Below, in pieces: positions 13,686 through 56,387 of a stretch of DNA of 64,000 bases. The notes beneath the pieces are model-generated. The model worked only from the letters and a program-made list of their open reading frames with translations, was not told where the DNA came from and searched no databases. Each line of letters begins with the position of its first letter. The first letter of the stretch is position 1. Origin of the DNA: Thermoanaerobaculia bacterium. GTDB lineage: Bacteria; Acidobacteriota; Thermoanaerobaculia; Multivoradales; J023. Where the stretch lies: contig DASWIG010000188.1 of the NCBI GenBank assembly GCA_036397835.1, forward strand, positions 18,964 to 82,963, read 5' to 3'. A program made the translations under genes and the position numbers.

Positions 13686-13689
13686 TATC

Positions 13690-31489: not shown

Positions 31490-31824
31490 GGCGACAGGCT
31501 GTGTAGCGACAGGCTGTGTAGCGACAGACCGTGTATCGACCCCCAAGTCGTCTCCTTCATGCCTGGGCCTCCGGATACACCGACAACGTCGCCGGCCGTC
31601 CTCGTGGCCGCCGACGGACCCACGCTGACCATCAGTGGCCCCTATCCTACCCGGCCGTCTTTCCGGGCGCAAGAGCGCCCCCGGCCTCCGCGCTGAATCG
31701 GCGCCGTCGGGCGGACTCGCGCTTCGCCTTCGACGCGATCCCTGGTAGCCTTGGGCCTCCGAAGCGCTCGGCGGGCTGGGGACCCGCAGCCGGCCCTCGG
31801 GGCGCTCTGGGTTGGTAGCGCCGG
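31490..31824. promoter_or_regulatory. Divergent intergenic/promoter region between the giant NRPS operon (-) and the glycosyltransferase-like gene (+)
   Basis: ~335 nt with no credible coding frame (both overlapping track ORFs are R/P/G-rich). Contains the tandem 15-mers and a second direct repeat, TGGGCCTCCG, at 31564-31573 and 31752-31761. No -35/-10 consensus assigned. Confidence 0.5.
31492..31536. repeat. Three tandem 15-bp direct repeats: CGACAGGCTGTGTAG (31492-31506), CGACAGGCTGTGTAG (31507-31521), CGACAGACCGTGTAT (31522-31536), plus a partial fourth copy CGACCCCC
   Basis: Read directly from the sequence. Lies immediately upstream of the putative GTG start of the giant NRPS, inside the divergent intergenic region. 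Confidence 0.9.
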
Positions 31825-32895: not shown

Positions 32896-32919
32896 GGCGG
32901 AGCCTCGTTAGGTCTACTA

Positions 32920-32950
32920 GGACGTGACTTGCGCACGCTCGGTCACGTCC
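32920..32950. terminator. Perfect 9-bp inverted repeat GGACGTGAC-(13 nt)-GTCACGTCC between convergent stop codons (32895 and 32969); candidate bidirectional terminator hairpin
   Basis: Stem 32920-32928 pairs with 32942-32950; loop 32929-32941; no U-tract. Confidence 0.45.
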
Positions 32951-32968
32951 AGCACGGGCGAAGTGCTT

Positions 32969-38900: not shown

Positions 38901-41900
38901 AGACCCAGCTCGCCGATCTTGGCGGCGATGTGGTTCATCATGCCGGCGTGCTCGACCATGGCCCCCTTGGGCGTGCCGGTCGAGCCCGAGGTATAGATCA
39001 CGTAGGCGAGATCCTGGGGCCGGGAGCGCCACGGGATCTCCGCTTCCGGCACCTCCGCTCCGGCGTCCTCATCCGCCAAGAGCTCTTCGAGCCAGGCCAC
39101 CGCGAGCCCAGCGGGCGCCGCTTCGCGGCCTCCGCGCAGCCACAGCGACGGTCGCGTCAGCAGCAGCGACGCGCGGCTGCGCTCGAGAATCTGGATCTGG
39201 CGACGGCGGGGATGCGACGGCTCGAGCGGCAGGTAAGCCCCTCCCGCCCCGAGGACGGCGAGGACCGCCGTCAGGAGCTCGACGCCCCGCGCCTCGAGAA
39301 GGGCCACGATCACGCCGGGGCCTACCCCCAAGCGGGCCAGCCGGCGTGCGGCCCGGCGAGAGCTCCGTTCGAGGGCGCGATAGGTCACGTTGCGATGCCT
39401 GCAAACCACGGCGACGGAGTCGGTGTGGCGCTCCGCCGCCCGGCGAAACGCCGGTCCGATGAAGCCGATGTCGTCGGCCTCGGTCTCCGTGTCGTTCCAC
39501 TCCAGGAGGAGCTGCTGACGTTCGGCGCCGGTGAGGAGCGTCAGGCGCTCGAGGGCGACCTCGGGGTCCGCCGCGAAACCCTTGAGGAGCTGCTCGAGAT
39601 GGCGCAACAGGCGTCGGGCCGCCGTCGGCTCGAAGGACCGGCCGGAGCAGACCGCCCGCAGCTCGAACGGATCGCCCGGCCGCGCCATCAGGTAGAGCGG
39701 ATAGCCCGTGTCGATGGACGGCCAGTCGCGGCGTACCCAGGAGCTTGCCCGCGATGGGAAGTTCTCGATCGCCAGGAAGCAGTCGAAGAGAGGCTGACCG
39801 GCGCCCACGGCGCTCCATCTCCGGACGTCGACCAGTGGGACGTGCTCGTGGGCCTGGACGGCGAGCCACCGGTCACGCACTTGACGAAGCCACGGGAGCA
39901 GCCGCGCGCCGGGATCGACGCGAACCCGGAAAGGCAGGTTGTTGACCAGGAGCCCGACCATCGACTCGATGCCCTCCAGGGGAGCCGACCGTCCTCCGAC
40001 GACGTTGCCGAACACGACGTCGACGCGGCCGCAATAGCGGCTCAACAGGATCGCCCATGCCGCCTGGACCAGGATCCCCGGGGTCGCGGCGCATTGCCGT
40101 GCTACCTCCCGAAGAGAACCGGCCGTCTCCCCCGAGAGCCGGTGCGCGAGCTCGATCCAGGCGGCCTTCGCGGGCGGACCGAATGGCTCCACCACCAGCC
40201 GCGCCGGCCGCTCGAAACCCGCCATATGGTGTCGCCAGAATACCTCCGACGCCGCCTTGTCCAGGCTCTCCAGCCACTCGGCGTAGTCACGAAACGGCCG
40301 GGCCGGACCGAGAGCCGGAAGGCGGCCCGCCCTGAGGTCGCGATAGGCCGACTCGACTTCCGCCAGCACCACGGCGCTGGACCACCCGTCGGCAATCAGG
40401 TGGTGGTAAGTCCAGACCAGGCGATAGCCGTCGTCGGCGACTCGAAAGAGGGACAGGCGCAGCAGCGGCGGCGTGCGGAGCTCGAAACGGCGCGCGCCTG
40501 CTCCGGTGCGGACGTGCTCCTCGATGGCGAGCTCCTGTCGGCGCGGCGTCAGCTCACGCAGGTCGTGATCCTCGATGCTCAGCGGGACCTGCCGGTGGAC
40601 GACTTGCCGCGGGCCGGCCGCACCCTCGAGGACGAAGCCGCTCCGCAAAGCGGGATGGCGTTCGACGACCAGCCGCCAGGCCTTACCGAGGGCGTCGACG
40701 TCCAGAGGCTCGCCGATCGCAAGGTCGACGTGCTCGAGATAGCTGGAGCCTTCCCGCGTCGAAAGAGTGTGCACGTAGAGCCCCTGCTGCATCGGAGTCA
40801 GGGCATGAGCGCTCTCGTCGGGTTGGCGCTCGATCGGTCGCTCCGGCAAAACGGCCGTGCGCTCGCAGACCTTGGCCAGTCGGGCGACGGTGGGATGCTC
40901 CAGCAGATCGCGGACCTCGAAGGCCAGACCGTACCGGCGCGCTTCCACCACGATCTGCAAGCAGAGCACCGAGTCGCCGCCGAGGTCGAAGAAGGAATCG
41001 CCGACGCCCACTCGATCGATGCCCAAGGCCCGGCTCCAGCACTGGGCCAGTCGCTCTTCCGTGGGGTCGCGCGGTGCCAGGTAAGGTTGTTCCAGATCGG
41101 GCCGGCTGCGCCCGGGCTCCGGCAGGGCACGGAGGTCGATCTTGCCGTTGGGTGTCAGCGGGAAGGCGGTCACGGGCACGAACACCGCCGGCACCATCGG
41201 CTCGGGCAGCTTCTGGCGCAGGAATCGGAAGAGCTCGCTGGGACCGGGCGCCGGCTCGCCATCGGCCACCAGGTAGGCCACCAGCCGGCGCCGGCCACCC
41301 TGGTCCTCGCGCACCGTGACGACGGTCTCGAGCACGCGCGGATGTTCCTCCAGGGCGGCCTCGATCTCGGTGAGCTCGACACGGACGCCGTGGATCTTGA
41401 CCTGGTGGTCGATGCGGCCGAGGTATTCGATCTCGCCGCCGGCGAGATACCGGGCCAGGTCACCTGGACGGTAGAGACGCGCGCCCGGCCGGCCGCCGAG
41501 GGCATCCGGCACGAAACGCTCGGCGGTGAGGCCGGGTCGATCCAAGTAGCCGCGCGCCAGGACCGGGCCACCGACATAGAGCTCGCCGACGACACCGGCA
41601 GCGACCTCCCGCCATCGGGCGTCGAGGAGGTGGATGCGCGCGTGGTGGACGACTCTTCCCACGGGAGGATGGGACGGCCAGCTCCGCGTTTTCCCGGCGG
41701 GAAGGGTATACGCGGTCACCACGTGGGTCTCGGCGGGGCCGTAATGGTTGTGGAGGCGCGCTCGGGGCAACCGCTCCATGAATTCGCGCACCGGACGCGT
41801 GACCTGGAGCTGCTCGCCGGTGGTGACGAGCTCGACCAGGGCGAGCGGCAACGGGCCCCGTCCGCGGAGGTGCTCGCTGATCTGTTGGAGGACGACGACC

Positions 41901-44137
41901 GGCAGGATGGCCTTGTCGATACCGCGCTCCAAGAGAAAGTCGGCCAGCGCGGGAACGTCTCGGCGCAAAGGCTCCGGGACCATCTCGAGAGCGCCTCCCG
42001 AGCCCCAGGCCGCGAACATCTCGTGGATGCTGACGTCGAAATTCAAGCTTGAGAACTGCAGCGTGCGTCGGCCACGGTACAGAGCTTCGAGGTGCCAGTG
42101 GATCAGGTTGACCATCACGGCGTGAGGCAGCAGGATGCCCTTGGGCCGGCCTGTCGATCCCGAGGTGTACATGACGTAGAACGGATGCTCGGGATCGACG
42201 GCGACGGCGAGCCGTTCTGCGGCGCTCGCGACCGCGGCTTCCGCACCGATCAGGATCGTCGGACAGGGCGGCGTGGGAAACGCCTCGAGGAGCGGCCGGC
42301 GCGTGATCAGGGCCGTGAGCCGCGCGCCGTCGAGAATCGCCGCCAGCCTTTCCCGCGGATAGCCGGCGTCGAGCGGCACGTAGGCGCCGCCGGACTTGAG
42401 GGTCGCCAGGACCGCGATCATCATCTCGGGCGAGCGCTCGAGGCAGATTCCTACTCGGGCTTCCGGGCCGGCCCCGAGCTCGGCCAGGCGTCGGGCCAGG
42501 GCGTTGGCCCGACCATCGAGCTCGAGGTAGCTCAATGCCCGCTCGGCGAAGACCAGAGCAACGGTTTCTGGGATGCGATCGGCTTGGCGCTCGAGGAACC
42601 GGTGCAGAGGGCCCGAGCTTCGGGAAGCGGGGCTCGTCGTGCTCCACTCGCGGAGTTGCTGCTGCTCGGCCGGGGTCAGCAGACCGTGCCGCGAGAGAGG
42701 GGCCTCGGGCCGTGAGGCGAGAGAGGCGAGCAGGGTCTGCAAGTGCCCCGCAATGCGCCGCGCCGTCGTCGCTTCGAAGATCTCGGCGTTGTATTCGACG
42801 CTGCCGCCAATCCCCGATCCACGTTCGTAGAAATAAAAGTTCAGGTCCTCCAGGGTCTGGAGCTCGCCGCCTGGCTCGAAAGTGGTCAACGAAGGCCCGT
42901 CGGCCGATCGCGGACCGTCCACCTCGAGGCTCTCGCCATGCTCCGGCAGGTCCAGCAGCACGAGCATGGTGCGGTAGGGCCGCGGCGCGGCGGCGGAGCG
43001 CTGCGGGCTCAACGCCCGCAGGATCTCCTCGAACGGCACTTCCTGATGAGCGAAAGCTTCCGAAACGCTCTGCCGAGCGCGGGCGAGAAGCTCGGTGAAA
43101 TCGGGATCGCCGCCGAGGTCGCCGCGCAGGACGACCGTGTCGGCGAAGAGACCGATCAAACCGTGGAGCTCACGCCGCCGCCGGTTGCTGACGAGCGAGC
43201 CGACCCACACGTCCGTGCGCCCCGAATAGCGGCCGAGCAGTGCCTGATAGGCCGCGAGCAACGTCATGAAGAGCGTCGCTCCCGAGTGCCGCGAGATGGC
43301 CCGTACGGTCCGCGCGATGTCGGCGGCCCAGAAGAATGCTCGCCGGCCGCTCCTGAACACTCGCCGCTCGGGCCGCGGCCGGTCCGCCGGCAGGCGCAGC
43401 GCCGGGGGCTGACCCGCCAAAGTCCGACGCCAGAAGGCCAGGTGTTGCTCGATGCTCCCTTCTCCCAGCCGGCGGCGTTGCCAGAGCGCGTAGTCGCCGT
43501 ACTGCACCGTGAGCTCGCGCCAGGCCGGCGCGTGCCCGCGGCGTAGCGTCTCGTAAGCTCCCGCCAGCTCCCGCAACAGCAACCGGTTCGACCACTCGTC
43601 CGAGACGGCATGGTGGATCGAAAGCGCCAGCAGGTGGTCGCGCTCGTCCAGGTGAACCACGAACAGGCGCCATAGCGGCGCCTTCGCGAGGTCGAACGGG
43701 TAGTTGCCAAGGCGGCGGACGAGGCGGCGTCCGGCGCCGAAACGCAGCGGCTCCGGCAAGGCGGTCAGGTCGACGATGGGAAGGGCGACGCGACAGGCCG
43801 CCGGCTCGACGATCTGGACCGGTCCCTCGTCAGTCGTGCGCAAACACGTCCGCAGCGTCTCGTGGCGTTCGACGAGACGCCGCAAGGCGTCCGTCAGAAG
43901 CCCTGCCGAAAGCTCACCGGCGAATCGCAGCGTCTGGTTGAGGAGGAATGCGACGCTCGCCGGGGCCAGTTGTTGGTCCAGGAAAATGGATTCCTGGGCC
44001 ATGGACAGTGGGAACCGGTCTCGACGCTCCTGTCGGGGGATGATAGGTGGTGCGGCCTCACGCCGCTTCCTGCCGCGAAGCTTTCGCAACAGCAGGGCAC
44101 GCCGGTCGCCGCTCAGACCATCGAATAGACGTTCCAT
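32969..44137 (-). CDS. NRPS, (C-A-PCP)x3-C, 3722 aa; ends with an intact C domain and an acidic tail
   Basis: ATG at 44137, 18 nt after the upstream stop. C1 HHAVSDEWS; A PFYVMYTSGSTGRPKGI; PCP FFDLGGDSVLCLQI; C2 LTPMQQGLYVH...YHHLIADGWS; A LAYVIYTSGSTGTPKGA; PCP FFELGGNSLMAIRV; C3 LSFAQERLWFL...HHIAADGWS; A AAYVIYTSGSTGEPKGV; PCP FFDLGGHSLLATQV; C4 LSFAQQRLWWL...QHHIVSDAWS; tail VEELDDDFAF; TAG at 32971-32969. Confidence 0.9.
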   Translation of the reverse strand: MERLFDGLSGDRRALLLRKLRGRKRREAAPPIIPRQERRDRFPLSMAQESIFLDQQLAPASVAFLLNQTLRFAGELSAGLLTDALRRLVERHETLRTCLRTTDEGPVQIVEPAACRVALPIVDLTALPEPLRFGAGRRLVRRLGNYPFDLAKAPLWRLFVVHLDERDHLLALSIHHAVSDEWSNRLLLRELAGAYETLRRGHAPAWRELTVQYGDYALWQRRRLGEGSIEQHLAFWRRTLAGQPPALRLPADRPRPERRVFRSGRRAFFWAADIARTVRAISRHSGATLFMTLLAAYQALLGRYSGRTDVWVGSLVSNRRRRELHGLIGLFADTVVLRGDLGGDPDFTELLARARQSVSEAFAHQEVPFEEILRALSPQRSAAAPRPYRTMLVLLDLPEHGESLEVDGPRSADGPSLTTFEPGGELQTLEDLNFYFYERGSGIGGSVEYNAEIFEATTARRIAGHLQTLLASLASRPEAPLSRHGLLTPAEQQQLREWSTTSPASRSSGPLHRFLERQADRIPETVALVFAERALSYLELDGRANALARRLAELGAGPEARVGICLERSPEMMIAVLATLKSGGAYVPLDAGYPRERLAAILDGARLTALITRRPLLEAFPTPPCPTILIGAEAAVASAAERLAVAVDPEHPFYVMYTSGSTGRPKGILLPHAVMVNLIHWHLEALYRGRRTLQFSSLNFDVSIHEMFAAWGSGGALEMVPEPLRRDVPALADFLLERGIDKAILPVVVLQQISEHLRGRGPLPLALVELVTTGEQLQVTRPVREFMERLPRARLHNHYGPAETHVVTAYTLPAGKTRSWPSHPPVGRVVHHARIHLLDARWREVAAGVVGELYVGGPVLARGYLDRPGLTAERFVPDALGGRPGARLYRPGDLARYLAGGEIEYLGRIDHQVKIHGVRVELTEIEAALEEHPRVLETVVTVREDQGGRRRLVAYLVADGEPAPGPSELFRFLRQKLPEPMVPAVFVPVTAFPLTPNGKIDLRALPEPGRSRPDLEQPYLAPRDPTEERLAQCWSRALGIDRVGVGDSFFDLGGDSVLCLQIVVEARRYGLAFEVRDLLEHPTVARLAKVCERTAVLPERPIERQPDESAHALTPMQQGLYVHTLSTREGSSYLEHVDLAIGEPLDVDALGKAWRLVVERHPALRSGFVLEGAAGPRQVVHRQVPLSIEDHDLRELTPRRQELAIEEHVRTGAGARRFELRTPPLLRLSLFRVADDGYRLVWTYHHLIADGWSSAVVLAEVESAYRDLRAGRLPALGPARPFRDYAEWLESLDKAASEVFWRHHMAGFERPARLVVEPFGPPAKAAWIELAHRLSGETAGSLREVARQCAATPGILVQAAWAILLSRYCGRVDVVFGNVVGGRSAPLEGIESMVGLLVNNLPFRVRVDPGARLLPWLRQVRDRWLAVQAHEHVPLVDVRRWSAVGAGQPLFDCFLAIENFPSRASSWVRRDWPSIDTGYPLYLMARPGDPFELRAVCSGRSFEPTAARRLLRHLEQLLKGFAADPEVALERLTLLTGAERQQLLLEWNDTETEADDIGFIGPAFRRAAERHTDSVAVVCRHRNVTYRALERSSRRAARRLARLGVGPGVIVALLEARGVELLTAVLAVLGAGGAYLPLEPSHPRRRQIQILERSRASLLLTRPSLWLRGGREAAPAGLAVAWLEELLADEDAGAEVPEAEIPWRSRPQDLAYVIYTSGSTGTPKGAMVEHAGMMNHIAAKIGELGLGARSVVAQNASQCFDVSVWQLLASLVVGGRVHVVPEEEAPDPRRLLGATLAGGVTHLEVVPSLLEYLLAEIEEQGTQASLGRLRWLIPTGEALAPALARRWLGRFPEVPLLNAYGPTECSDDVTHFRLARPLAEGVLHTPVGRALRSLRTFVLDRAQRVVPVGLLGELHVGGVALGRGYLREGARTAEVFVPDGLSRQPGERLYRTGDLARHLADGNVEFRGRIDHQVKVRGHRIEPAEIEAALRQLPGVREALVVTWQPGGDRGAGATPDRRLVAYVSGAAAAGSDAEPWRALLAEKLPASMIPSVFVVLDDFPRLPSGKIDRRGLPDPGASDARESRASPRTPLEETLATIWCDLLDRDQVGLHDDFFELGGNSLMAIRVSSRIRALFGVEVALQEVFEASTLGSLARVVERTMNSEAGSPRPPRPRLAPLLPASSRILPLSFAQERLWFLNRLEPINPAYNIPLALRLVGRLDVAALVHALTAIVRRHGILRTVYSEQDNGPRQEVLPPAPVPVPAVDLRRLPSAVREEELKRLAAASALRPFDLARGSVLRVSLARVDDQDHSLFVTLHHIAADGWSMHLFAREMVALYEASAAGRESPLPELPISYADYAVWQRRWLAGENLEKDLAYWRDRLAGAPPVLNLPADRPRPAQPGSRGGRRPLNLPPELGRRVRLLSRREGTTLFMTLLAAFQTLLSRYTGERDVVVGVPVAGRTQVETEALIGFFVNTLVLRTDVRGDSGRAFPTLRTLLGRVRRATLAAFAHQELPFEKLVEELRPQRDLAHSPIFQVVFVLQNLPRVPPRLRNVELVALGQPVTVARFDLTLQVGETAERLGGAIEYRAELFDPTTVQRMTRHYRRLLEAMADEDAAETRLDALPLLSVAESHQTFTECSGGSDSLPCPEKTLDGLFAVQAGRTPDAVAVSFEGAALSYARLARTSRRLGDRLRRLGIAPEVRVGLFLERTPEMVVAILATLNAGGAYVPLDPDEPRHRLARKIEDSGIAALLTTDALAPKLSESGVRRIHLDHRWPAAEPDRCRPDTSPKSHRAAYVIYTSGSTGEPKGVVVTHHNVVRLFETTRPWFGFHSGDTWTLFHSYAFDFSVWELWGALLHGGRLVVVPYWTSRSHEELCSLVVRERVCVLNQTPSAFRSLRDVAEPGALALRRVIFGGEALDLGSLRPWLDRHGESSPVLVNMYGITETTVHVTVLPIRRAHTARRVGGSLIGGPLPDLEVHLVSAALAVLPLGVTGEIVVAGEGLSRGYLNRPGLTASRFVPHPWSKRAGARLYRSGDLARRLADGGLEYLGRADQQVKIRGFRVELGEVEAALAAYPAVREALAVLTRDGAGNPRLAGYVVAPAAAPSREELNRFLRERLPDPMVPSALVFLERMPLNRNGKVDRGALPPPEVTPQTVSPATPRTPIVELVTGIWADVLGIEPFGPHDNFFDLGGHSLLATQVVSRLRRSLGVEVGLRQLFEHPTVEELSAEIARMRRGDAPAPPAILADPTARSAELSFAQQRLWWLSQLRGASSAYNVNGALRLEGHLDVTALAASLREILRRHEVLRSTIEASDGREPVQVVGPIRPSYLPVADLSSLREPDRDAELVRLAESEAARPFDLARGAMVRITLVRLAARLHVVLLTQHHIVSDAWSQAIIAGELKTLYAAFKGGAGLAEAARLLPDLPLQYRDYARWQRNWLRGEVLERELKYWRERLEGIPRLFAGLADYPRPPVPSFRGAAENVQLSRDLTLRLESLSRENQATLFMTLLAAFDLLLWRHSGQRRFVVATNVAHRTRTEVEPLVGFFVNMLLLPVELIDDPPFTEFLARIRESTLDAYGHQDTPFEKLVEELQPERDPSYNPLFQVVFSLLNAPSVPLQLPGLQLSGFRIKRRSAKFDLLMNVWPSPDGLRGELEYSRDLFSPMTIRNLLDRFGRLLESIVATPEARLSKLDVLSRRETAALATPIHVEELDDDFAF

Positions 44138-44155: not shown

Positions 44156-47100
44156 TCAGGCCTCGTCTGCGAGCTGATCGCGGACTTCCTCGTCGGAGAG
44201 CTCTGCGAGCTCTTGCAGGGCCTCGGCCAGGTCTTCATCACTGGCGTCGGCCAATTGGAGCTCCTCGACGAGGAGCGCGAGCTGGGCCACCGTCCGGACC
44301 TCGAAGAGCCTGAAGGCCGGTAAGTCGACGCCGTAGCGCTCCTGGAGGCGCGACATGATCAGGATCGCGCGCATCGAATGTCCACCCAGGTCGAAGAAAT
44401 CGTCGTGGAGACCCACGCGCTCGACCGCCAGCACCGCCGCCCATATCTCGGCGAGCTGTCGCTCCAGCTCCGTCGACGGGGCCACGTAGGGCCGGGCGGC
44501 CGCTTCCTCGAGCTCGGGCAATGCGAGGCGGTCCACCTTGCCGTTCGGCGTCATGGGCAGCTCGTCGAGGACGAGGAAGCGGCTCGGCACCATGTAGGGC
44601 GCCAGCCGCTCCTCCAGAAAGGCGCGCAGGCTCCGAGGCTCGGGATCACGCCCGACTCCTCGAGCCACGTAGGCGGCAAGCTCGATCTCGCCAGAGCCGG
44701 AGTCGCGGGCGCGGACCGCGCAGAGCTCGACGTCGGGATGAGCCCCGAGCGCCGCCTCGATCTCTCCGGGCTCCACCCGGTGCCCCCGGACCTGGACCTG
44801 GTGATCGAGCCGGCCCACGAATCGGAGACAGCCGCCGCCGTCGAAAAAGCCGAGATCGCCGGTGCGCAACAGGCGCGAACCGTGACGGCCGCTGTGAGGA
44901 TCCGGCACGAACCGCTCGGCGGTGAGCGCCGGCCGGCGCAGATAGCCGCGGCCGGGGGCGCCTCCGGCCACGTGGATCTCGCCGGTGCAGCCGATCGGCG
45001 AAAGCCGCGAGCGCCGATCGAGCACGAAGACCGCCACGCCCCGGATCGGCCTGCCGAGGGGCATCCCGTCCGGATCTTCGAACCGCCTCGGCACCGGGTG
45101 GAGCGCTACCATTCCGGCCGTTTCGGTCTGGCCGTACATGTTGACGAACCGCGGCGGGTCCTCGAAACGGCGTTCCCATTCGCGCGGGACCTCCGCCGCC
45201 AGGACCTCACCAGTCGACAGGGCGAGGCGTGGACGGTACCCGGCCGCGGCGGGAGAGCCGAGGACTTTGAGGCACCCGCGCCACAACGAGGGCACGGTAT
45301 CCATGACCGTGGCCGCGGTGTTCCTCGCAAGACCCAGGAGCCGCTTGGGATCGGACCGCTCCTCGTCGGTGGCTAGCACCAGCGCGGCGCCGCGGCTCAG
45401 CGGAACCAAGAGGTGACGCACCGAGGACGAGAAGGCGAACGAAGCGGTGTGAAGGAAGACGTCGTCTCCTCCGACTCCAAGGGCTTCAGGCAGGGAATCC
45501 AGGTAGTGAGCGAGGTTGGCGTGGCTCACCATGACCCCTTTGGGCTCGCCGGTGGAGCCCGAGGTGAACATCACGTAGGCCAGGCTTTGAGGATCGGCCT
45601 CCGGCGACGGCGCTCGCTCTTCGCGGTCCTCGTCGCGACAGTCTTCATCGAGGCGGAGCACCTGCGCGGGCGCCGGCAGCGCGTCGCGAAGGCGGCCGCG
45701 GGTCAGGATCAGGGCGGGCCGCGCCAGCTCGGCGACCCGCAGGTTCCGCTCGCGCGGATACGCGGGATCCAGAGGCACGTAGGCCCCGCCTGCCATCAGG
45801 ACGCCGAAGACACCCGCCACCATGTCCGGCGAGCGGTCGAGGCAGATCCCCACGAGCGTCTCCGGCCCGACGCCGCGCCGGCGCAGCCGGCACGCGACGT
45901 CGCCGGCGACGGCGGCGAGACGGCGGTAGCTCACGTGCTGCCCGGCGCAAATCACCGCGATCCGATCGGGCCCGTGCTCGACCCGCTCGAGAAAGAGCCG
46001 CACGGCGTCCGCGGGCCGGCGGCCGGGGACTTCCGGCGAGGAGACGCTCCAGACCTCGATCACCTCTCTCTCCGCCGGCGAGACGACGTCGAGGTCCTCC
46101 GGAAAACGGTCCGGGTCAAGGACCGCCGCGGCGAGCAGGGTCGAGAGCCGCTCCGCCATGCGGCGGGCGGAGTCGGGAGTCAGGCGGCCGGCGTCGTACG
46201 CGAGCTCGGCGTCGAGCGCCCCGGAGCACGCCGGGCCTGCGGCGCGGCGGAAGACCGCGAGCCGCACCACGAAACGCTCCGTCAGCGCGCTGTGGTGGGT
46301 CAGGGAGAAGCTCGCCTCGCCTCCCCTCCAAGAGGTCTCTCCTTCCTCGAAGAGAAAGGCCCAGGGCAGGAAGACGTCGTCCTGGGGTTGGTAGAATTCC
46401 TGCCAGTCGTAGAGCTCTTCCGTCAGCTCGAAGGCCTGGCCGGCGACTTCGCGAAAGCGCCGCCGGGGCCCGCAATCGAGGCGCAGGGGGAGATAGCGCT
46501 CCAGAGGACCGATGACCCGCTCCAGGCCTTCGTACGAACGGCCGTCGTAGCAGGTCGCGACGGGCACTTCTCGGCGGCCGGTGAGGCGGCCGAGAAGCGT
46601 GGCCCAGGCGGCCAGGATGACGGCGGCCGGGCTCACCCCCGAACGCTCGGCCAGGCGGTCGGTGGCCGCCGCGACCCCTTCGCCGAGCGTCACGGAGGTG
46701 AACCGAAGCTCAGGGGGCTCGGAGCCGCCGGTGCCCTCTAGGGGCAACCTGAGCCATCTCGTGTCGCCGGGGCGCCGATTCGCCCAGAACCGCCGTCCCT
46801 GCTCGGCGTCATCACCGTGGGCGAGCTCGTTCTGCCATTCGGCGAGGTCCACATACCGCATCGGCTCCTCGCCCTGCCGGACGCCGCCGCCGTAGGCCGC
46901 GGCGACTTCCGCCGCAAGCTGGCGAAGGCCGCGGCTGTCGGCTTGGAGCGCGGTGAGCTCGAGCTCGAGGGTCCAACGCTCCGGCGCCAACCGGATGAGC
47001 CTCGCCCTGATGGCGGAGCCGACGGCGGGCTCGGGAGACTTCCTGGTCTCGGCGGCGTCAGCGACGGTAAGCTCGACGACGGCTTCGGTCACGATCTGAA

Positions 47101-47362
47101 CCGGCAGGCGCAGCCCGGGCGGGCAGTGGAAACGGCTCCGCAGGACCTCGTGCCGCGTCACGACGTCTTGCAGGACGCTGCGCAGCCGGGACACCTCGAG
47201 TGGCCCGCGGACGTCGATCTCGAGCCGGGCAGGACAACAGGCCGGGAGAGCACCCGACTCCGGCTCGGCCCCGGCCGCCAGCGCCCACGCCCGCCTCTGT
47301 TGCGGCGACAGGCGGTATCCTCGTACAGGCTCCGGACGATCCACCGATTCCACCGGTTGCAT
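44156..47362 (-). CDS. NRPS, C-like (degenerate, lacks the HH motif)-A-PCP, 1068 aa
   Basis: ATG at 47362, 15 nt after the TauD-like stop. N-terminal ~450 aa has C-domain C1/C2-like motifs (RLSPQQRRAW, VTRHEVLRSRF) but LELTALQADSRGLRQL where HHxxxDG should be. A core LAYVMFTSGSTGEPKGV, PCP FFDLGGHSMRAILI, acidic tail DEEVRDQLADEA. Confidence 0.85.
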   Translation of the reverse strand: MQPVESVDRPEPVRGYRLSPQQRRAWALAAGAEPESGALPACCPARLEIDVRGPLEVSRLRSVLQDVVTRHEVLRSRFHCPPGLRLPVQIVTEAVVELTVADAAETRKSPEPAVGSAIRARLIRLAPERWTLELELTALQADSRGLRQLAAEVAAAYGGGVRQGEEPMRYVDLAEWQNELAHGDDAEQGRRFWANRRPGDTRWLRLPLEGTGGSEPPELRFTSVTLGEGVAAATDRLAERSGVSPAAVILAAWATLLGRLTGRREVPVATCYDGRSYEGLERVIGPLERYLPLRLDCGPRRRFREVAGQAFELTEELYDWQEFYQPQDDVFLPWAFLFEEGETSWRGGEASFSLTHHSALTERFVVRLAVFRRAAGPACSGALDAELAYDAGRLTPDSARRMAERLSTLLAAAVLDPDRFPEDLDVVSPAEREVIEVWSVSSPEVPGRRPADAVRLFLERVEHGPDRIAVICAGQHVSYRRLAAVAGDVACRLRRRGVGPETLVGICLDRSPDMVAGVFGVLMAGGAYVPLDPAYPRERNLRVAELARPALILTRGRLRDALPAPAQVLRLDEDCRDEDREERAPSPEADPQSLAYVMFTSGSTGEPKGVMVSHANLAHYLDSLPEALGVGGDDVFLHTASFAFSSSVRHLLVPLSRGAALVLATDEERSDPKRLLGLARNTAATVMDTVPSLWRGCLKVLGSPAAAGYRPRLALSTGEVLAAEVPREWERRFEDPPRFVNMYGQTETAGMVALHPVPRRFEDPDGMPLGRPIRGVAVFVLDRRSRLSPIGCTGEIHVAGGAPGRGYLRRPALTAERFVPDPHSGRHGSRLLRTGDLGFFDGGGCLRFVGRLDHQVQVRGHRVEPGEIEAALGAHPDVELCAVRARDSGSGEIELAAYVARGVGRDPEPRSLRAFLEERLAPYMVPSRFLVLDELPMTPNGKVDRLALPELEEAAARPYVAPSTELERQLAEIWAAVLAVERVGLHDDFFDLGGHSMRAILIMSRLQERYGVDLPAFRLFEVRTVAQLALLVEELQLADASDEDLAEALQELAELSDEEVRDQLADEA

Positions 47363-47377: not shown

Positions 47378-48448
47378 TCAGGCGTTGCCGGACCACATCT
47401 CGTTCATCGCCGTCAGCAGACGCCTCTCTCCCCGGTACGGGTTGCGTCCGTGGGCGGTCAACATGTTGTCGAGGAGCAGCAGGTCGCCCTGCTGCCAGGG
47501 GAAAACGGCCGCCTCGGCCCACGACGCGCTGCGAAGGTGCCCGACGACCTCGGGCTCGATCGGCGCGCCGTCGCCGTAGAAAGTGCCGTGGGGGAGGCCC
47601 TCCTCTCCCAGTCGGGACTCGAGCGCGCCGCGCACCTCCGGATCGAGGTTCGAGGCGTGAAAGAGCACCACGTGATTGAACCAGACCTCCTCGCCCGTCT
47701 CCGGATGACGGGCCAGAGCGTCACGCACCGCGCGGGTGCGCAGGCGGTTTTCGCCACGCCATTCAAAGGTGATGCCCGAGGCCGAGCAGAAGGCTTCGAC
47801 CTCGGCGCGCCGGTCGGTCTTGAACACGGTGCGCCAGTCAATCCCCAGGCCTTCGCCATAATTGCGCATGTAGAGCACCTTGCGCCGCCGGAAGCGCTCG
47901 CGGACCTGGGGGTCGATGCGCTGAAGGATTTTGCGCGTATCGGCGATGGGCGTCTCTCCGCCTTCCTCCGCCGGAATCTCGCAGAAGAAGAATAGGTTCA
48001 TCGGCCAGGTCTTGGAGTAGGCGAGCTCGCTGTGGAGGAAAATGTCCTGATCGGCCGGATAGTCCGTGGAGGTGTAGACGTTGCCGCGGATAACGCTGCG
48101 CGGCGTCGTGGCATCTCGGTAGACCGCCAGGTCCTCTCGCGAGAAGGCCCGGACCACGGCTTCGAGCTCATCGACCCCCGACAGGTCGAAACCGCGAAAC
48201 AGCACACCGCCGACGGCTCGCTGCCAAGAGCGAGCCACGGCTCGGTTGTCGCTAAGCCAAGCGGCGAGGTCCACGCCGTCGGCGGCCGGGCGCGCCACCA
48301 CGGGCAATCGGCCGTCGGCGGAGGGTTCGAATCGCACCAGGTGCTCCGCCGCGCTCCTCGGAGCCGCGCGAGCGATCCCTGATGGGAGCTTCTTGGGAAG
48401 ACGCTTCGACGTTGTTGCCGTGCTCAATTGCGCACCTCCATGTCGCAT
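47378..48448 (-). CDS. TauD/TfdA-family Fe(II)/2-oxoglutarate-dependent dioxygenase (SyrP-like tailoring enzyme)
   Basis: 356 aa from the ATG at 48448 (overlaps the last 8 codons of the PKS-NRPS; the track ORF is over-extended to 48610 through an R/G-rich stretch). FLHSELAYSKTWPMNLFFFCEIPAEEGGETPIADTRKI and C-terminal LLLLDNMLTAHGRNPYRGERRL are typical of the TauD fold as found in NRPS clusters. Confidence 0.7.
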   Translation of the reverse strand: MRHGGAQLSTATTSKRLPKKLPSGIARAAPRSAAEHLVRFEPSADGRLPVVARPAADGVDLAAWLSDNRAVARSWQRAVGGVLFRGFDLSGVDELEAVVRAFSREDLAVYRDATTPRSVIRGNVYTSTDYPADQDIFLHSELAYSKTWPMNLFFFCEIPAEEGGETPIADTRKILQRIDPQVRERFRRRKVLYMRNYGEGLGIDWRTVFKTDRRAEVEAFCSASGITFEWRGENRLRTRAVRDALARHPETGEEVWFNHVVLFHASNLDPEVRGALESRLGEEGLPHGTFYGDGAPIEPEVVGHLRSASWAEAAVFPWQQGDLLLLDNMLTAHGRNPYRGERRLLTAMNEMWSGNA

Positions 48449-51400
48449 GTCTCGGGTGCCGGCTCTCGGCGAGAGCCGGCCGCCACCGCCGTGGGCACCG
48501 GTTTGCGCCGTCGCTCCCGGGAGGCGAGCTCGCGCCGGCTTTCCTGGCGCAAACGGTCGACCGCCGAGCTCGATCGGAGCTCGGGCTCCCCGGCGATCAG
48601 CTCGAGGCACCGTTCGAAGTCCCGGGCCAGAGCGGCGATCCGTGTTTCCGTGAAGAGGTCCGGGCGGTACTCGAACGCCGCGCCCCGCACTCCGTCGGCC
48701 TGCTCGAAGACGAAGACGGTGAGATCGTACTTCGAGGTACCGCGCGCCGATTCCCAGGGCTTGAGCACCAGACCCGGCAGCTCCATGGGCTCGTCGGGGT
48801 CACGCTGCACGATGAACATCACTTGAAACAGGGGCGCCCGGGTGGGATCGCGGGGCAAATCGAGCTCCGCCACCAGCCTCTCGAGAGGCAGGTCCTGGTG
48901 GGCGTAGCCGCCGAGGGCCACCTCGCGGACCCGTCTGAGCAGTTGGCCGAGCGTCGGATCGCCGTCGAGCCGCGTCCTGAGGACCATGACCGCGGCGAAC
49001 AGGCCGATCAACTCCTGCGTGCCGAGGGCGTTGCGTCCGGTGATCGGAGAGCCCACGAGGAGGTCCTCCTGGCCCGTGTGGCGGTAGAGCAACAAGTAGA
49101 ACCCGGCCAGAAGGGCCATGAAGAGGGTCGCCTCCTCGGCATCGGCCCGGCTCTTCAACCTATTTCCGAGGCCGTCGGCGAAAGCAACCGTATGGCGTGC
49201 GCCGCGAAAGCTCCGGAGCGCGGACCGGGGATAGTCGGCGGGGAGCTCCAAGGCCGCCGGAGCGCCGGTCAACTGGTCCTTCCAATAAGCCAGTTGTCGA
49301 TCGACCCGCTCCGCCGTCATCCAGCGGTCCTGCCACACGGCATATTCCACGTAGCGAAATGTGAGCTCCGGCAGGAGCGCCGGGCGGCCCTCCAGGCGAG
49401 CTCGGTAAAGGGCGACGAGCTCGCGTACGAAGAGGATCTGGGAAAACCGATCGCAGACCAGGTGGTGGAGGGTGATGGCGAGGACGTGCTCGTCGCCTTC
49501 GAGCCGTAGGAGCAAGACCCGTACGAGCGGGCCGCGCTCCAGGTCGAACGGCCGGGCGAGCTCGGCTCGCACCTGCCGGTGCGCCTCGCGTTCGCGGCCG
49601 TCCCTCGCCAGAGCGCTCAGGTCGACCTCCCTCACCAGGCACCGGAGATCGTCCGAAATGGTCTGAGCCGGCGCGTCACCGGCCAAGTGGAAGGTCGCCC
49701 GGAGCTCGTCCTGGCGCCGCGTCAACGCGTCGAGCGCGCTCTGCAGGTCATCGATCCGAAGCCTGCCGGAAAGGCGCAGGACGGTGGGCACGTTATAGGT
49801 CGGCGTGCCGGGGCGCAGGCGTTCGAAGAGCCAGATCTGGCGCTGGTTGAAGGAGAGGGGGAAGGGCCCCGGGCCGTCCCGCCGCTCGATCTCTCCGGCG
49901 GTGTCGCCGCCGTCCTCGCTTCCGAGCTCGGTCACCGCGGCGGCAAGCTCGGCGATGGTCGGGGCTTCGAAGATCGTCCGCAGAGACGGACGGACCGCGA
50001 AGTGCTGCTCGGTGAACGCTACCAGGCGCGTGGCGAGCAGCGAATCGCCACCGAGATCGAAGAAGTTGTCATGGACTCCGACCTCGGACAACCCCAGCAG
50101 GTCGCGCCAGATCGATGCCATTCGATCCTCGAGGTCGGTGCGCGGCGCGACCATGGCGGTGGCCAGGTCGGGCCGCGGGTGATTGGCTCCGGCCTGGGAT
50201 CGGAGCTGGTCGATCCGGTCGAAGTGGCGGCTCGGAGTCTGCTCGGCGAGCGCCCGCAGGCGGGTCGGAAGGTGGCGGGTCGAGATCAGCATTTGCGGCG
50301 GCAGGCGGTACAACCCGAGCAGACGGCGCAGGACCTCGGCACCTTCCCGCGGCCGGATCGCGGCCAGAAGCTCCTCTTCGCGCTCGCCTGCCCGCTCGTG
50401 AGTGTGGGCGAGAGCCGCGCCGATGTCCTGGGTGGCGCCGGCGGCGCCGATGGCGGCGGGATCGACGCGGCGCAGCGTGTACCCCTCGATCTCGACGAGC
50501 ACTTCTCCTTCCAGGTCGAGGAGCGTGAGATCGGTGGTCAGGATCTCGTCGGTCAGGGCTCGCAGGCGGGCATGGCTATAGAACGACCGCGGCAACGGAC
50601 GCAGCGGTCGCAGTCTCTCGTAGCCGTAGGGCAGGTAGAGCCCTTCCGCTCGGCGCTGGACGAAGCCGGTCGCGCCGTCGAGGAGCGCCGGATGGAGGCC
50701 GTAGACCCCGATCTCGGCGGCGAGCTCTTCGGCCAGGGTAATGGTGAGAAGGCCTTGGGAGTCGCCCCAGCGTAGCTGCTTGCTCGTTGTCGTCCAGTGG
50801 GGGCCGAAGAGGAAGGAACCGGACCGCCGATCGGCGCTCGCCGCGGCAGCCTCGTCGAGCTCGCTGCACTCGCGCCGGATCGCTTCCACGTCGACGGCGG
50901 GAATGGGCGAGGCGGTCCGCCGCACGGCCCGGCCCTCGACGTGGCGCACCGGCTCGCTCCCGAGCTCGGCCGAGCGGCTGTCGACGTGGAAGGCGAATCC
51001 GTCGTCGCGACGTTCCAGAGTGAGGTGCGCCCAGCGCTGCCCGGCGTCGGGCACGACCATGGGCTGGAGGAAGTAGACCTGGCGCAGCTCCCACTCGGCG
51101 TCGCCGAGCCTCTCCGCGCAGGCGGCACGGACCATCTCCAGGTATCCCGTGCCCGGCATCACCCCGCCATCGGTGAAGCGGTGCTCGTCGAGGACCCAGA
51201 AGTCCGCGGTGGTCAGCTTCGTGCGGTAGACGATCCTCTCCCCCGAGTCGTAGACGCACTCGCCCAGAAGCGGGTGATCCGGAGCGTAGAGGATCTCTTC
51301 AGGCTCGCCGATCAGCCCGAAGCTGGCCGCCGCTGCCACGGCTTGTCCGACCTCCTGCCAGGCGTCCCAGTTGACGCTCATCACGCGGGTGCCGCCGACG

Positions 51401-54400
51401 AGCGCCGCGGACTGGGCGAAGGCGTCGAGGAAGGAATTGGCGGCCGTGTGGTCGGTGAGACTGAAAGAGCCCGTGATCGCCGTGAGCGACGAGCACAGAA
51501 GAAGAAAGTCCGGCCGCTCGGCAGCGAAGACCCGCTCCAAGACCCGCGTGCCCTGCACCTTGGGAGCCAGGACCTCCGCCATGCGCGCGCGCGTCGTGAT
51601 CTCGAGGAATCCCCCCGGGAAGACGCCGGCGGCATGGAGAATGCCGTCGACGGCGCCGAACCTCCGCCTCACCTCGGCGCGGAGCTGCTCCATCGCCTCG
51701 ACGTCGGTGACGTCGGCCGCGGCAACCAGGACCTCGGCTCCGAGCTCCTGGCAGGCTCGAATCCGCCGGATTCGTCGGCTCACGGGATCGGAGGGCGGGT
51801 TTCCGGCGACGTGGCCGTCCCACGCTGAAGCTGGCGGAAACGCCGACCGGGTCACCAGCACGAGCCGCGCCTGGACGCTGCGGGCGAGCTCCTCGGCCAT
51901 CACCAGGCCCAAGCCGCCGAGGCCGCCCGTGATCAGGTAGACCCCTTGCGACTTGAGCAGAGATCTCGCTTCCCCAGCCGCCCCCGGCACCGGAACGTCG
52001 ACCCTTTCGAAGTCACGCCGCCAGCGCCGCGAGCCGCGATAGGCCACCGGCGAAATCCCGCCCATGTCGTCGAGCTCGCGGCGCACGGCGTCGAGCAGGT
52101 GCTCCTCAAGCCGGCTCTCCGGCGGTGGAAGAGCGAGCTCCAGGCACCGGCATTCGATGCCGGGGAACTCCTGAGGAATGACGGCGCAGGGACCGAGGAT
52201 GGTCGCTTTTTCGGGATGGACTTCATCGTGTCCTGTCACCTGAAAGAGATGGCTCGATAACACCCACAGGCCCAGAGCTTGCGGCGGCCGGCCTGCTGCG
52301 AGCGCCTGCGCCAGGAAGATCAGGCTGTAGAGCCCCAGGTCCAGATCCCGCTCAGGTTCCGGCGCGGCCGGTCCCAGGGTCCAAAGGTGCACGATGCGAT
52401 CGATCTCGTGGCCCTCGGCGCGCAGGTCCGTGAGGAGGTCGCTGTAGCCTCCGGGCTCACCGGGCTCGAGCGTGAAGGCGCCCGGCTCGACCTTGGCGAA
52501 GCGCTCTCCGGCCGCCACCAGCACCACCGTGTGCCCTTCGTCCTCGAGCCTCTCGGCCAGCCGCAGGCCGAAGCCCGCCTCTTCGATGAAGAGCACCCAG
52601 GTGCGCCTCGGCCCGGGCGTCGCCGGCGCCGTCAGCGCCGGAGGCTCCGGCTTCCAGGCCGGTAGGTAGAACCAGTCGTCGAGAGCGGTCTTGGCGAGCG
52701 TCGCCAGGGCCTCGTTGGGCACCGCCGTGTCCAAGCGAGACCGGGCCTCGATCCAGAACCGCTTCCGCTCGAAGGGATAGGTGGGCAGCGGCACGCGACG
52801 TCGGCGCTCCCCGGCCGCGAAGCTCGGCCAGTCGACGACCACGCCGGCGATCCACAGGCGTGCCAGCGCGTCGAGCAGGTACGCCTGGTCGGAATGCCGG
52901 TCGAAGGCGTGGCGCAAGGTGGGTACCGCCAGCCGTTCGACTCCGTCGCTCGCGGGCGCCTGCAGAGCCCAGGAGCTCAGGACCTGGCCGGGTCCGACCT
53001 CGACCAGCGCGCGAGCGGCATCCGCGCCCAACTGCGCGACCCCGGCCGCGAACCGTACGGGTCGGCACAGGTGATCGGCCCAGTAGCCCGGATCGGTCGC
53101 CTGCCCGGCCGTGATCCAGGTCCCGGTCACGTTGGAAACGAAAGGGATGCGCGGCGCCCGGAGGTTCGCTCGCGCGACGCGTTGGCGGAAGGCGGCGACG
53201 ACGGGGCTCATCATGGGGGAATGGAACGCGTGCGTGGTCTCGAGGCGGCGAGCGACGTCCCCTCGCTCTTCCAGCCGCCGGGCCAGGTCGGCGACGGCGT
53301 CCGGGGCCCCGCCCACCACGGTGACTCGCGGGGCGTTGACCGCAGTGATCGACAGGTCGGGCGTCAAGAGAGCTTCGACCTCGGCTTCGGAGATCGACAC
53401 GGCGAGCATCGCGCCGGCCGGCAGGCGGTCGATCATCTCGGCGCGGTCGGCGACCAGAGCGAGGCCGTCCTCGAGGTCGACCACCCCCGCCAGGCAGGCG
53501 GCTACGTACTCGCCGATGCTGAAGCCGAGCATCGCCGCCGGCCGCAGCCCCCACTCCACGAGCAGACGCGCGAGCGCGTACTCCACGGCGAAGAGCACCG
53601 GCTGCGCCAGCCGGGTCCTCAGCAGCTCGCCCGCCGCGCCGCCGTCGCCCTCGGCCGAGCGGCCGATCAAACGGGCGAAGTCGCTCTTGGGGGTGCTCCG
53701 CGCGATCTCGGGGGGATAGAGGACGGTCCGGAAATCGAGCCCCAACCGGGGCTCGAGCAGCTCGGCGCAGCGGTCGATCTGATCGCGGAAAACCGCCTCC
53801 TCGTCATAGAGCTCGCGGGCCATACCCACGTAGTGGTTGCCGAGGCCGGGGAAGAGGAACGCCACGGTGGCCCCCTCCGGCCGCGGCCGGCCGGTGAGCA
53901 GACGGCTCGGATGCTCGCCGCGCAGCAGCGCCGGCACGTCGTCGCCGCAGCGGCAGACCAGGGCGCGGCGGTGCTCGAAGGGCCGCCGGCCGAGCCGCAG
54001 AGTGTGGGCGACGTCCGCCAGCGCCTCCGGCGAGCTCGCCGGGCCGGCGGCGCCCGAAAGGTGCTCGGCCAGCCGGGCGGTCATCGTCGCGAGCGCGGAA
54101 GGCGTGCGGGCCGACCACACCAGGAGCTGGTGAGGCCGGCTGGCGCCGGAAGGCTCCGGAGGGGGCGCTTCCTCGAGCACCAGATGAGCATTGACGCCGC
54201 CCATGGCGAACGAGCTCACGCCCGCGCGGCGCGGCGCGGCCCCGGCGCCCTGCCACTCCCGCCCTTCCGACTGGACGTAGAAAGGGGTCGCGGCGAAGTC
54301 GACGTGGGGATTGGGCGTCGAGAAGTGGAGGCTTGGCGGCAAGAACCGGTGCTCGAGCGCGAGGACCACCTTGAGCAGGCCGGCGACGCCGGCGGCGATG

Positions 54401-55467: not shown

Positions 55468-56387
55468 CTCGCGATCCCCCGGCGCTGGGATCTCGCCGCG
55501 GCGAACAGCCGGCCGGCGCGGACACGGGTCCTGGACAAGGCCGGGCGGCCCACCGTTTCCGCCGGCCTGGACCGCGCGGCGTAGAGGTTCCAGATCGGCG
55601 AGCTCTCGTAGTGGACGTCCTGATCGGCGACGACCGTGAACCCACGCTCTTCGAGGACCTCGCGCAGACGCTCCACGCGCCCCGCGACGTCGTGGACCTC
55701 GACGACCACCTGGCGGATCTTGGGCCAGTCGGCCGGCTCGATGCCGGCCAGCACGTCCTCCTCGCTCTTTTGCACGTCGATCTTGAGCAGGTCGATCCGC
55801 TCCACTCCCTCGTCGCGAATGACCTGGGAGAGCGGCAGCAGCTCGACGTCGAAAGTCTTGTTGCGCAACCGCTCGGCGAGCAGGTCGTCGGCATGCTCGA
55901 GGACCTCCTCGACGCCCTCGACGCCTTGACGCCGCTGATTCTCGAAGATCGATCGCAGGGCCTCGCGCTCCTCGTCTGGATCGCCGTAGAACGACGACAT
56001 GCCGGAGCTCGAGAGGTAGAAGGTGAGCGTGCCCCGGCCGCTGCGGCGCGAGACGCCGCAGTGGAACAGCCGCACGGCTTCGCCATGGCCGGCGGTGTTG
56101 TGGCGCAGGATCTCGAACAGTGCCGGCGCCGGCTCGAACGCGTAGACCCGGGCACGCGGGCTGAACCGGAGGGCGAAGAGCGTGAAGAGCCCGATGTTGG
56201 CCCCCACGTCGAAGACGCACTCCGCGTCCGAGAGATCGATACCGTGGCGCACGTAGATCCTCTTGACGAAGATGTCCTCGTAGAAGTACCTCGCCTCGCT
56301 GGTGGTCTGACAGGCGATCTCCAGACCGTTGGGCAGGCTGAGCCGACGCGGGACCGAAGCGCTGATCGGGGGTAGGGGTTCCGGCAC
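55464..56387 (-). CDS. FkbM-family SAM-dependent methyltransferase, 307 aa
   Basis: GTG start at 56387 (12 nt after the upstream NRPS TAG at 56402-56400). ECVFDVGANIGLFTLFALRFSP is the FkbM-family SAM-binding signature; the TGA stop overlaps the PKS ATG. Confidence 0.75.
   Translation of the reverse strand: MPEPLPPISASVPRRLSLPNGLEIACQTTSEARYFYEDIFVKRIYVRHGIDLSDAECVFDVGANIGLFTLFALRFSPRARVYAFEPAPALFEILRHNTAGHGEAVRLFHCGVSRRSGRGTLTFYLSSSGMSSFYGDPDEEREALRSIFENQRRQGVEGVEEVLEHADDLLAERLRNKTFDVELLPLSQVIRDEGVERIDLLKIDVQKSEEDVLAGIEPADWPKIRQVVVEVHDVAGRVERLREVLEERGFTVVADQDVHYESSPIWNLYAARSRPAETVGRPALSRTRVRAGRLFAAARSQRRGIAR

Follow-up and report, generated by a model that had tools for sequence, protein, structure and literature searches.

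A condensation-fold domain without catalytic histidines, probably an interface domain paired with a TauD-type oxygenase, opens a synthetase subunit of a Thermoanaerobaculia bacterium

The protein gI is encoded at 44156-47362 on the minus strand of a 64,000-nucleotide stretch of DNA from a Thermoanaerobaculia bacterium (GenBank assembly GCA_036397835.1, contig DASWIG010000188.1, positions 18,964 to 82,963; the whole of this stretch is referred to as the window). It opens with a domain that has the fold of a non-ribosomal peptide synthetase (NRPS) condensation (C) domain and neither of the catalytic histidines. This N-terminal domain is probably an interface (I) domain, that is, a His-less C fold working with the TauD-type Fe(II)/2-oxoglutarate oxygenase that is encoded directly upstream. 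The features on which this reading draws are the following (A, adenylation domain; T, thiolation or carrier domain; positions are those of the window).

48424-55467, minus strand: gB, a polyketide synthase (PKS)/NRPS protein, KS-AT-KR-DH-T-C
49933-50124, minus strand: gB carrier domain, the likely donor of the growing chain (Pfam PP-binding)
48532-49869, minus strand: gB C-terminal condensation domain (Pfam Condensation, 298 bits; 461 bits against the canonical-C model introduced below)
49447-49467, minus strand: HHLVCDR motif of the gB C domain, with HH and Asp kept and Gly replaced by Arg (alignment)
47378-48427, minus strand: stand-alone TauD/TfdA-family Fe(II)/2-oxoglutarate oxygenase gene between gB and gI (Pfam TauD, 4e-43, 148.7 bits)
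44156-47362, minus strand: gI, 1068 aa, C-like-A-T
46061-47332, minus strand: interface-like (I) domain, full-length C fold, aa 11-434 of gI (I-family model, neighbour-joining tree, conserved columns)
46934-46954, minus strand: TALQADS at the HHxxxDG position (alignment of the window's 16 C-fold domains)
44537-45988, minus strand: gI adenylation domain, core motifs intact (Pfam)
44273-44458, minus strand: gI thiolation (carrier) domain, GGHSM (Pfam and sequence)
44159-44272, minus strand: acidic C-terminal tail of gI after the T domain (…LADASDEDLAEALQELAELSDEEVRDQLADEA), read from the sequence
32969-44137, minus strand: gC, C-A-T-C-A-T-C-A-T-C
42662-44044, minus strand: canonical N-terminal C domain of gC (HHAVSDE), which would take the chain from the gI T domain (Pfam and alignment)

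In gI, a weak Pfam match to Condensation (aa 16-307, 94.6 bits) is followed by AMP-binding, AMP-binding_C and PP-binding. When the window's 16 C-fold domains are aligned together, T137, A138, L, Q, A, D142 and S143 of gI fall in the HHxxxDG columns; both His are gone and Asp142 is retained. A preliminary description of this DNA had already noted that gI starts with a C fold lacking both catalytic histidines, had pointed to the segments RLSPQQRRAW and RHEVLRSRF, and had remarked that HH is retained in the C domain at the end of the upstream protein (48424-55467). Alignment and Pfam bear out these observations (the two segments lie at aa 17-26 and 70-78, respectively). Its reading of the degenerate motif as ALQADSRG is right in that the motif is His-less, but is shifted by one residue relative to the aligned block, TALQADS. 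No alternative, correctly spaced HHxxxDG emerges from the alignment. (The sole HH of the domain, in LTHHSAL at ~aa 355, was considered as an alternative active site and rejected: it belongs to the C-lobe, falls outside the motif columns of the alignment and is unconserved in relatives.) Canonical LCL and DCL condensation domains have an HHxxxDG motif with a catalytic second His, which the gI domain lacks; the gI N-terminal domain is almost certainly not a peptide-bond catalyst.

A profile of the gI domain and its relatives matches solved C domains over positions 11-447 (E = 3e-56). Among the PDB sequence matches of the I-domain profile, ordinary C domains (Txo1/Txo2 among them) are best, X domains stand lower in the list, and no solved I-domain structure is apparent. 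Foldseek likewise recovers C domains and X domains from an AlphaFold2 model of the gI domain (5-sequence alignment; mean predicted local distance difference test score, pLDDT, of 61, which serves for recovery of the C fold only).

A word-indexed homologue search with the gI domain alone, in a collection without the window's own protein, yields 10 matches at 25-32% identity. In the first homologues (~30% identity) L-P-[AS]-L-C-A-D replaces HHxxxDG, and an A-E-W-Q-N-E motif follows downstream. A profile of these first homologues (A2) finds relatives of the gI domain in more than 543 stretches of a species-representative genome collection. The counts of the genome survey rest on the 80 loci kept of these, which are mainly cyanobacterial, with some from Acidobacteriota, deltaproteobacteria and others. 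Every C-fold domain in the kept loci was scored with an I-type and a canonical C-type hidden Markov model (HMM), the I-like reference set being defined here by architecture and not by published I-domain seed sequences. The scores are cleanly bimodal: 112 full-length domains favour the I model by more than 100 bits. All 112 stand at the very start of an open reading frame (ORF), as do essentially all when 64 metagenome relatives are added, and the surveyed I-like family comes to ~176 full-length members.

When both HMMs are rebuilt from the loci alone, leaving out the window and its first matches, the gI domain scores 289 bits against the I model (model positions 4-444) and 105 bits against the canonical-C model, while all the other C-fold domains of the window score the opposite way, with the C model above the I model. 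In a neighbour-joining (NJ) tree with Poisson correction, built from 35 I-like and 45 canonical C domains together with 15 of the C folds in the window (a half-C domain being left out), the gI domain lies within the I-like clade in 50 of 50 bootstraps. Of the 78 columns with a conservation of 85% or more across the I-like family, it retains 59. The active-site block of that family is [PS][AS]LCAD[AST], with Asp present in 109 of 109 domains and His found at position 1 in one of the 109 and at position 2 in none. The I-model score, the place in the NJ clade, the conserved columns and the invariant Asp together indicate that the gI domain represents a domain type conserved under selection, as opposed to a C domain in decay. 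Close relatives did not come to light, in the sense that genome and metagenome searches found none above 37% identity to the gI domain; the loci from the metagenome scan, which had been made for close relatives, were used as a second sample for synteny with TauD. (A HMMER search with the I-domain profile against 1.84 billion representatives gives 114,990 matches, the best 150 of which, by summed score, are giant multi-C NRPSs and uninformative on the family.)

The preliminary description mentioned the TauD gene only as a landmark and missed the link of the I-like family to the oxygenase. A TauD domain is encoded directly upstream, on the same strand, of 91 of the 110 informative I-like domains in the genome sample (in 67 as a stand-alone protein, in 24 as a C-terminal fusion with the upstream NRPS) and of 35 of the 55 informative ones in the metagenome sample, or in ~76% of informative cases overall. 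The C domain preceding that TauD retains HHxxxD in 67 of 68 cases from related loci.

In the window, gB, the TauD gene and gI appear to be tightly coupled in translation: the stop codon of gB is overlapped by the probable TTG start of the TauD gene (TTGA), which is preceded by GGAGG, and the ATG of gI is 15 nt past the TauD stop codon and is preceded by a GGAGAGAG Shine-Dalgarno sequence. The TauD protein carries His-x-Glu (FLHSE) and a distal His (TAHGR), both of which are conserved with a homologue from Brasilonema (locus L030, discussed below). It is 48-52% identical to stand-alone TauDs that precede I domains elsewhere, in Asp- or His-coded modules, and ~40% identical to TauDs of the fused type and, likewise, to the TauD of a locus (L084) in which the neighbouring A-T protein has no I domain.

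The interface-domain family, to which the gI domain probably belongs, has been described before; the domain is a known kind of part and reveals no novel principle of docking in general. With antiSMASH 8 came profiles for interface domains and for siderophore beta-hydroxylases, citing Reitz 2019 (PMC12230676). Published I domains (Reitz et al. 2019, cited in PMC12230676; MxgB, PMC13638107; Glm of glidomide biosynthesis) are, like that of gI, His-less C folds standing first in an I-A-T arrangement. In these systems a TauD-type Fe/2-oxoglutarate oxygenase likewise lies directly upstream (stand-alone in the window, fused in MxgA and CcsJK), and a competent C domain ends the upstream protein. In myxoglucamide biosynthesis, MxgA ends in C-Ox and MxgB begins I-A-T, its I domain being His-less; the chain is extended by C(MxgA) and not by I(MxgB) (PMC13638107). 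The layout for cyanochelin C is comparable, with CcsJK ending in a C domain and TauD and acting together with CcsL. Stand-alone TauD beta-hydroxylases (TBH_Asp class, SyrP-like; 10.1101/2022.12.14.519525) resemble the window's oxygenase in TauD fold, in the His-x-Glu…His triad and in being encoded by a stand-alone gene directly before an I-A-T gene. There are also differences. The upstream partner in the published systems is an NRPS module, whereas in the window it is the PKS module KS-AT-KR-DH-T-C; the usual motif is P-A-L-C-A-D, whereas gI has TALQADS at only ~30% identity to other members; and the published A domains have Asp, His, Asn or Glu codes, whereas that of gI reads SSRDLTMGM-K, without Asp235.

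Two further arrangements invite comparison. The X domain of glycopeptide NRPSs (PDB 4tx2/4tx3, 6m7l) is a dead C/E-fold platform (E, epimerisation) for oxygenases acting in trans on carrier-bound substrates, and is among both the sequence and the fold matches of the gI domain. The analogy with X domains that the preliminary description drew is apt, because both are C-like scaffolds partnering a trans-acting oxygenase. The X domain follows the last T of the final module, however, and recruits cytochrome P450 Oxy enzymes, while the gI domain precedes an A domain at the start of a subunit and pairs with TauD; nor are the two mutually closest, canonical C domains (Txo1/Txo2) scoring higher. An identification of the gI domain as an X domain is ruled out by its N-terminal position before the A domain, and no P450 is found among those window ORFs (not all of them) that were scanned with Pfam. 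In modules split as C and A-T, with a C-terminal C domain acting in trans, the competent C domain has its acceptor carrier on the next protein; this is the situation of gB, and of gE with respect to gF elsewhere in the window, but the split between gB and gI holds, in addition, a His-less C-fold domain and an oxygenase gene.

A sequence of events can be proposed that starts from what is observed here (domain content, the missing catalytic residues, membership of the family in the sense defined above, gene coupling and conserved synteny). The gI A domain would load its own substrate onto the gI carrier, as the domain content implies. The stand-alone TauD would then oxidise, and most likely beta-hydroxylate, the substrate bound to the gI carrier, with the I domain serving as a platform that joins carrier domain and oxygenase; for both parts of this step the family synteny and the published I-domain work are the guide. 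The C-terminal C domain of gB, in which HH is kept, would couple the polyketide-peptide chain on the gB carrier to the gI residue in trans, in keeping with the architecture and with the precedent of MxgA/MxgB, and the canonical N-terminal C domain of gC would hand the chain onward. The I domain itself would form no bond. Condensation in trans by the upstream C-terminal C domain, which the preliminary description had proposed, is made plausible by the HHxxxD motif in related loci and by the role of C(MxgA) in chain extension (PMC13638107).

Several observations weigh against an interface function tied to the oxygenase. The gI domain is a divergent member of the family (26-36% identity, with T-A for P-A and Q for the usual Cys), and its link to published I domains rests on shared architecture and the literature description. 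Tunnel and surface detail of the pLDDT 61 model is not trustworthy. For 17-36% of the family, TauD is absent from the 2.5 kb upstream; an example is a self-contained, TauD-less I-A-T-C-A-T-TE protein beside restriction-modification genes (locus L017, 9983-17332). Conversely, the A-T protein of locus L084, of a near-identical code type to that of gI, adjoins a TauD although no I domain is present. Asp235 is missing from the A domain of gI, whose code is of none of the Asp, His, Asn or Glu types. On whether an I domain is necessary, published biochemistry gives two answers: I(MxgB) is dispensable in vitro (PMC13638107), and for glidomide biosynthesis the I domain is reported, in the account cited in the same paper, to be required for hydroxylation by GlmF. 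The I-like family may serve partners other than TauD, and since about a quarter of the family is without a TauD directly upstream, a broader scaffolding role may be conceivable. (Besides locus L017, locus L001 is of interest in this regard; at 8283-12271 it has a gene for a B12-binding radical S-adenosylmethionine (SAM) protein between a C-terminally fused TauD and an I-A protein.)

That the His-less domain merely keeps gB and gI together for the gB C domain, as a generic structural or docking module with no specific relation to TauD, is an unlikely explanation, if one with some substance. Such a role would suit a domain that always opens a subunit, usually behind a competent C domain as the last domain before it; the family members without an adjacent TauD (the 17-36% referred to above) and the dispensability of I(MxgB) for hydroxylation in vitro fit it as well. 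But adjacency to TauD in about three-quarters of informative cases, across phyla, is far above expectation for generic docking, and other split junctions of the same cluster (the C of gE with the A of gF, the T of gI with the C of gC) work without such a domain. The glidomide I domain, reported indispensable for hydroxylation in the work cited in PMC13638107, also speaks for a relation to the oxygenase.

There is considerably less to recommend a cryptic catalyst, in which the invariant Asp and other conserved residues would be used for non-amide chemistry, e.g., dehydration of a beta-hydroxy product or ester formation. The invariance of the Asp of the former motif and the 78 strongly conserved columns could be accommodated in this way, and other members of the C family have gained new chemistry (the dehydrating C domain of AmbE, 7r9x; MxgH, PMC13638107). 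Yet the His is replaced by no general base, the family Cys beside the Asp is Gln in gI, the known products of I-domain modules retain the beta-hydroxyl (beta-OH-Asp/His siderophores; 10.1101/2022.12.14.519525), and no experiment indicates catalysis; we regard it as very improbable. Least credible of all is a decaying relic of a formerly active C domain, left after a module was split over two proteins, for although the Pfam score is low and partial and the cluster does contain real relics (the half-C of gD and an E domain with HR), the gI domain gives a full-length match (model positions 4-444) to a family whose conservation extends from cyanobacteria to Acidobacteriota, the bulk of that family's conserved columns (59/78) is kept, and an intact ORF goes together with tight coupling of the genes.

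An interface domain working with the TauD-type oxygenase thus remains the preferred reading, and the substrate on which the pair would act is the next consideration. The code of the gI A domain is SSRDLTMGM(K), with Ser at position 235, Arg at 239 and Asp at 278 (alignment in GrsA-PheA numbering). Asp235 of A domains binds the alpha-amino group of the substrate. Among the A domains behind I-like domains, the Asp code DLTK[IV]GH[VI]G accounts for 54 of 81 and the His code DSALIAEVW for 7 of 81, and Asn-like codes also occur; the substrates predicted from these Asp, Asn-like and His codes are those reported for I-domain/beta-hydroxylase systems. Of 81 + 47 A domains behind I-like domains only one, in locus L030 of Brasilonema sp. 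CT11, matches the gI code type (SSRDLTMGT). The I-A-T protein of L030 is 37% identical to gI, and the TauD upstream of it is 48% identical to that of the window; by these measures L030 is the closest analogue found of the window's TauD/I/A trio. (At 8891-20371, L030 has two consecutive TauD + I-A-T-C units, the first with code SSRDLTMGT and the second with the Asn-like code DATKIGEVG.) The Brasilonema homologue shows that the predicted trio of TauD, I domain and SSRD-type A domain is conserved across phyla.

The nearest relatives of the gI A domain elsewhere are stand-alone A-T proteins with the code SSRDLAMGI. They occur in two contexts: beside TauD, an ATP-binding cassette (ABC) exporter and an MbtH protein (L084), and beside an Ldh_2-family dehydrogenase (an Ldh_2-type 2-oxo-acid reductase) and thiamine pyrophosphate (TPP) enzymes (L088-L090). 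A search of the accessible literature for the codes SSRDLTMG and SSRDLAMGI found no paper. The Asp235-less code, together with the contexts of these A-T relatives, suggests that the substrate of gI may be acidic and not a plain alpha-amino acid. It is conceivable, though we put it forward tentatively and would not bet on it, that the I/TauD pair here serves no standard alpha-amino acid at all. In that event the module may load a 2-hydroxy or 2-oxo acid of acidic character, or else an amino acid whose side-chain carboxylate is the activated group; oxidation would take place on the carrier, and the link made by the gB C domain might be an ester. At the other end of gI, the acidic tail behind the T domain is probably helical and may serve for docking to the subunit that follows.

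The window has ~70% G+C, and all of it belongs to a single large minus-strand cluster of the hybrid NRPS/PKS type. The remaining features of this cluster are as follows.

63998 (open at the right window end) to 56400, minus strand: gA, C-A(Asp code)-T-C-A(interrupted by a luciferase-like monooxygenase)-T
55464-56387, minus strand: FkbM methyltransferase gene, between gA and gB
31825-32895, plus (opposite) strand: glycosyltransferase family 2 (GT2)-like gene, in the gap between gC and gD
18374 to ~31500 (ORF 18374-31834), minus strand: gD, half-C-A-T-C-T-Cy-A-T-Cy-A-Ox-T-E-like
30767-31474, minus strand: gD half-C, the C-terminal lobe of a canonical C domain only (C model 78 bits, I model 38 bits)
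18377-19795, minus strand: gD C-terminal E-like domain, HRLAADA, with the second His replaced by Arg (best matches are the solved epimerisation domains PvdL E2, BacC, TycB and GrsA)
13690-18390, minus strand: gE, C-A-T-C
8562-13715, minus strand: gF, A-T-C-A-T
8655 to 1 (open at the left window end), minus strand: further hybrid ORF, KS-AT-T-C-A-T-C-A

The preliminary description went beyond gI and held that every protein-protein junction of the cluster pairs one competent C/E-fold domain with one degenerate partner, the degenerate partners being one class of docking modules. Its two other examples are real: the half-C near 31489 and the E-like domain at the end of the protein encoded by 18374-31834, which reads HRLAADA. 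The generalisation does not hold. Such a pairing occurs at three of the seven junctions in the window (gB with gI, gC with gD, gD with gE), and the other four are T with KS (gA and gB), T with C(HHAVSDE) (gI and gC), C with A (gE and gF) and T with KS (gF and the next protein). The cluster's three degenerate domains are not one class: that of gI reads as an I domain, the half-C of gD as a canonical C domain that is truncated, and the E-like one as an E domain with HR. Since they differ in kind, the unifying idea fails.

The half-C of gD consists of the C-terminal lobe alone and precedes an A domain with an Asn-like code (DLTKVGEVG); no N-lobe for it is found in any frame of the 31834-32969 gap between gC and gD. 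This gap of ~1.1 kb has a lower G+C content (63%) and holds the glycosyltransferase family 2-like gene on the opposite strand. The E-like domain of gD follows a thiazole-forming module, Cy-A-Ox-T, in which no stereocentre is left to epimerise, and gE, which comes after it, opens with a DCL-like C domain (LSPLQQGMLFH, HHILMDA).

Other peculiarities of the cluster may be recorded here. In gA (56400-63998, minus strand) the second A domain is split by a luciferase-like, flavin mononucleotide (FMN)-type monooxygenase domain at ~aa 1721-2042 of the listed ORF. This interrupted A domain is located in the middle of the assembly line, with the FkbM-type methyltransferase gene and the PKS module coming directly after. 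In the PKS module of gB, the Pfam matches to dehydratase domains (aa 2103-2376 of the ORF) come behind that to the ketoreductase (aa 1880-2077), which is the reverse of the usual PKS order, DH-KR. The hybrid gene at 1-8655 (minus strand) is missing from the listed ORFs; the plus-strand ORFs that are listed there are without a Pfam match and are probably spurious.

With regard to annotation, "interface domain with a TauD-type oxygenase as partner" is a better label for the N-terminal domain of gI than "inactive C domain" or "generic docking module". The residue of the gI module would be predicted to be oxidised, probably beta-hydroxylated, and formation of the bond between the gB chain and the gI residue would be assigned to the C-terminal C domain of gB. 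For the I-like family as a whole, the survey provides a useful quantitative picture. The Asp235-less A domain is the feature that most deserves follow-up, in that it suggests use of the I/TauD pair on a substrate class so far undescribed for it. A non-standard substrate of gI, if true, would extend the interface-domain system beyond beta-OH-Asp, -His and -Glu, and into the hand-over from PKS to NRPS.

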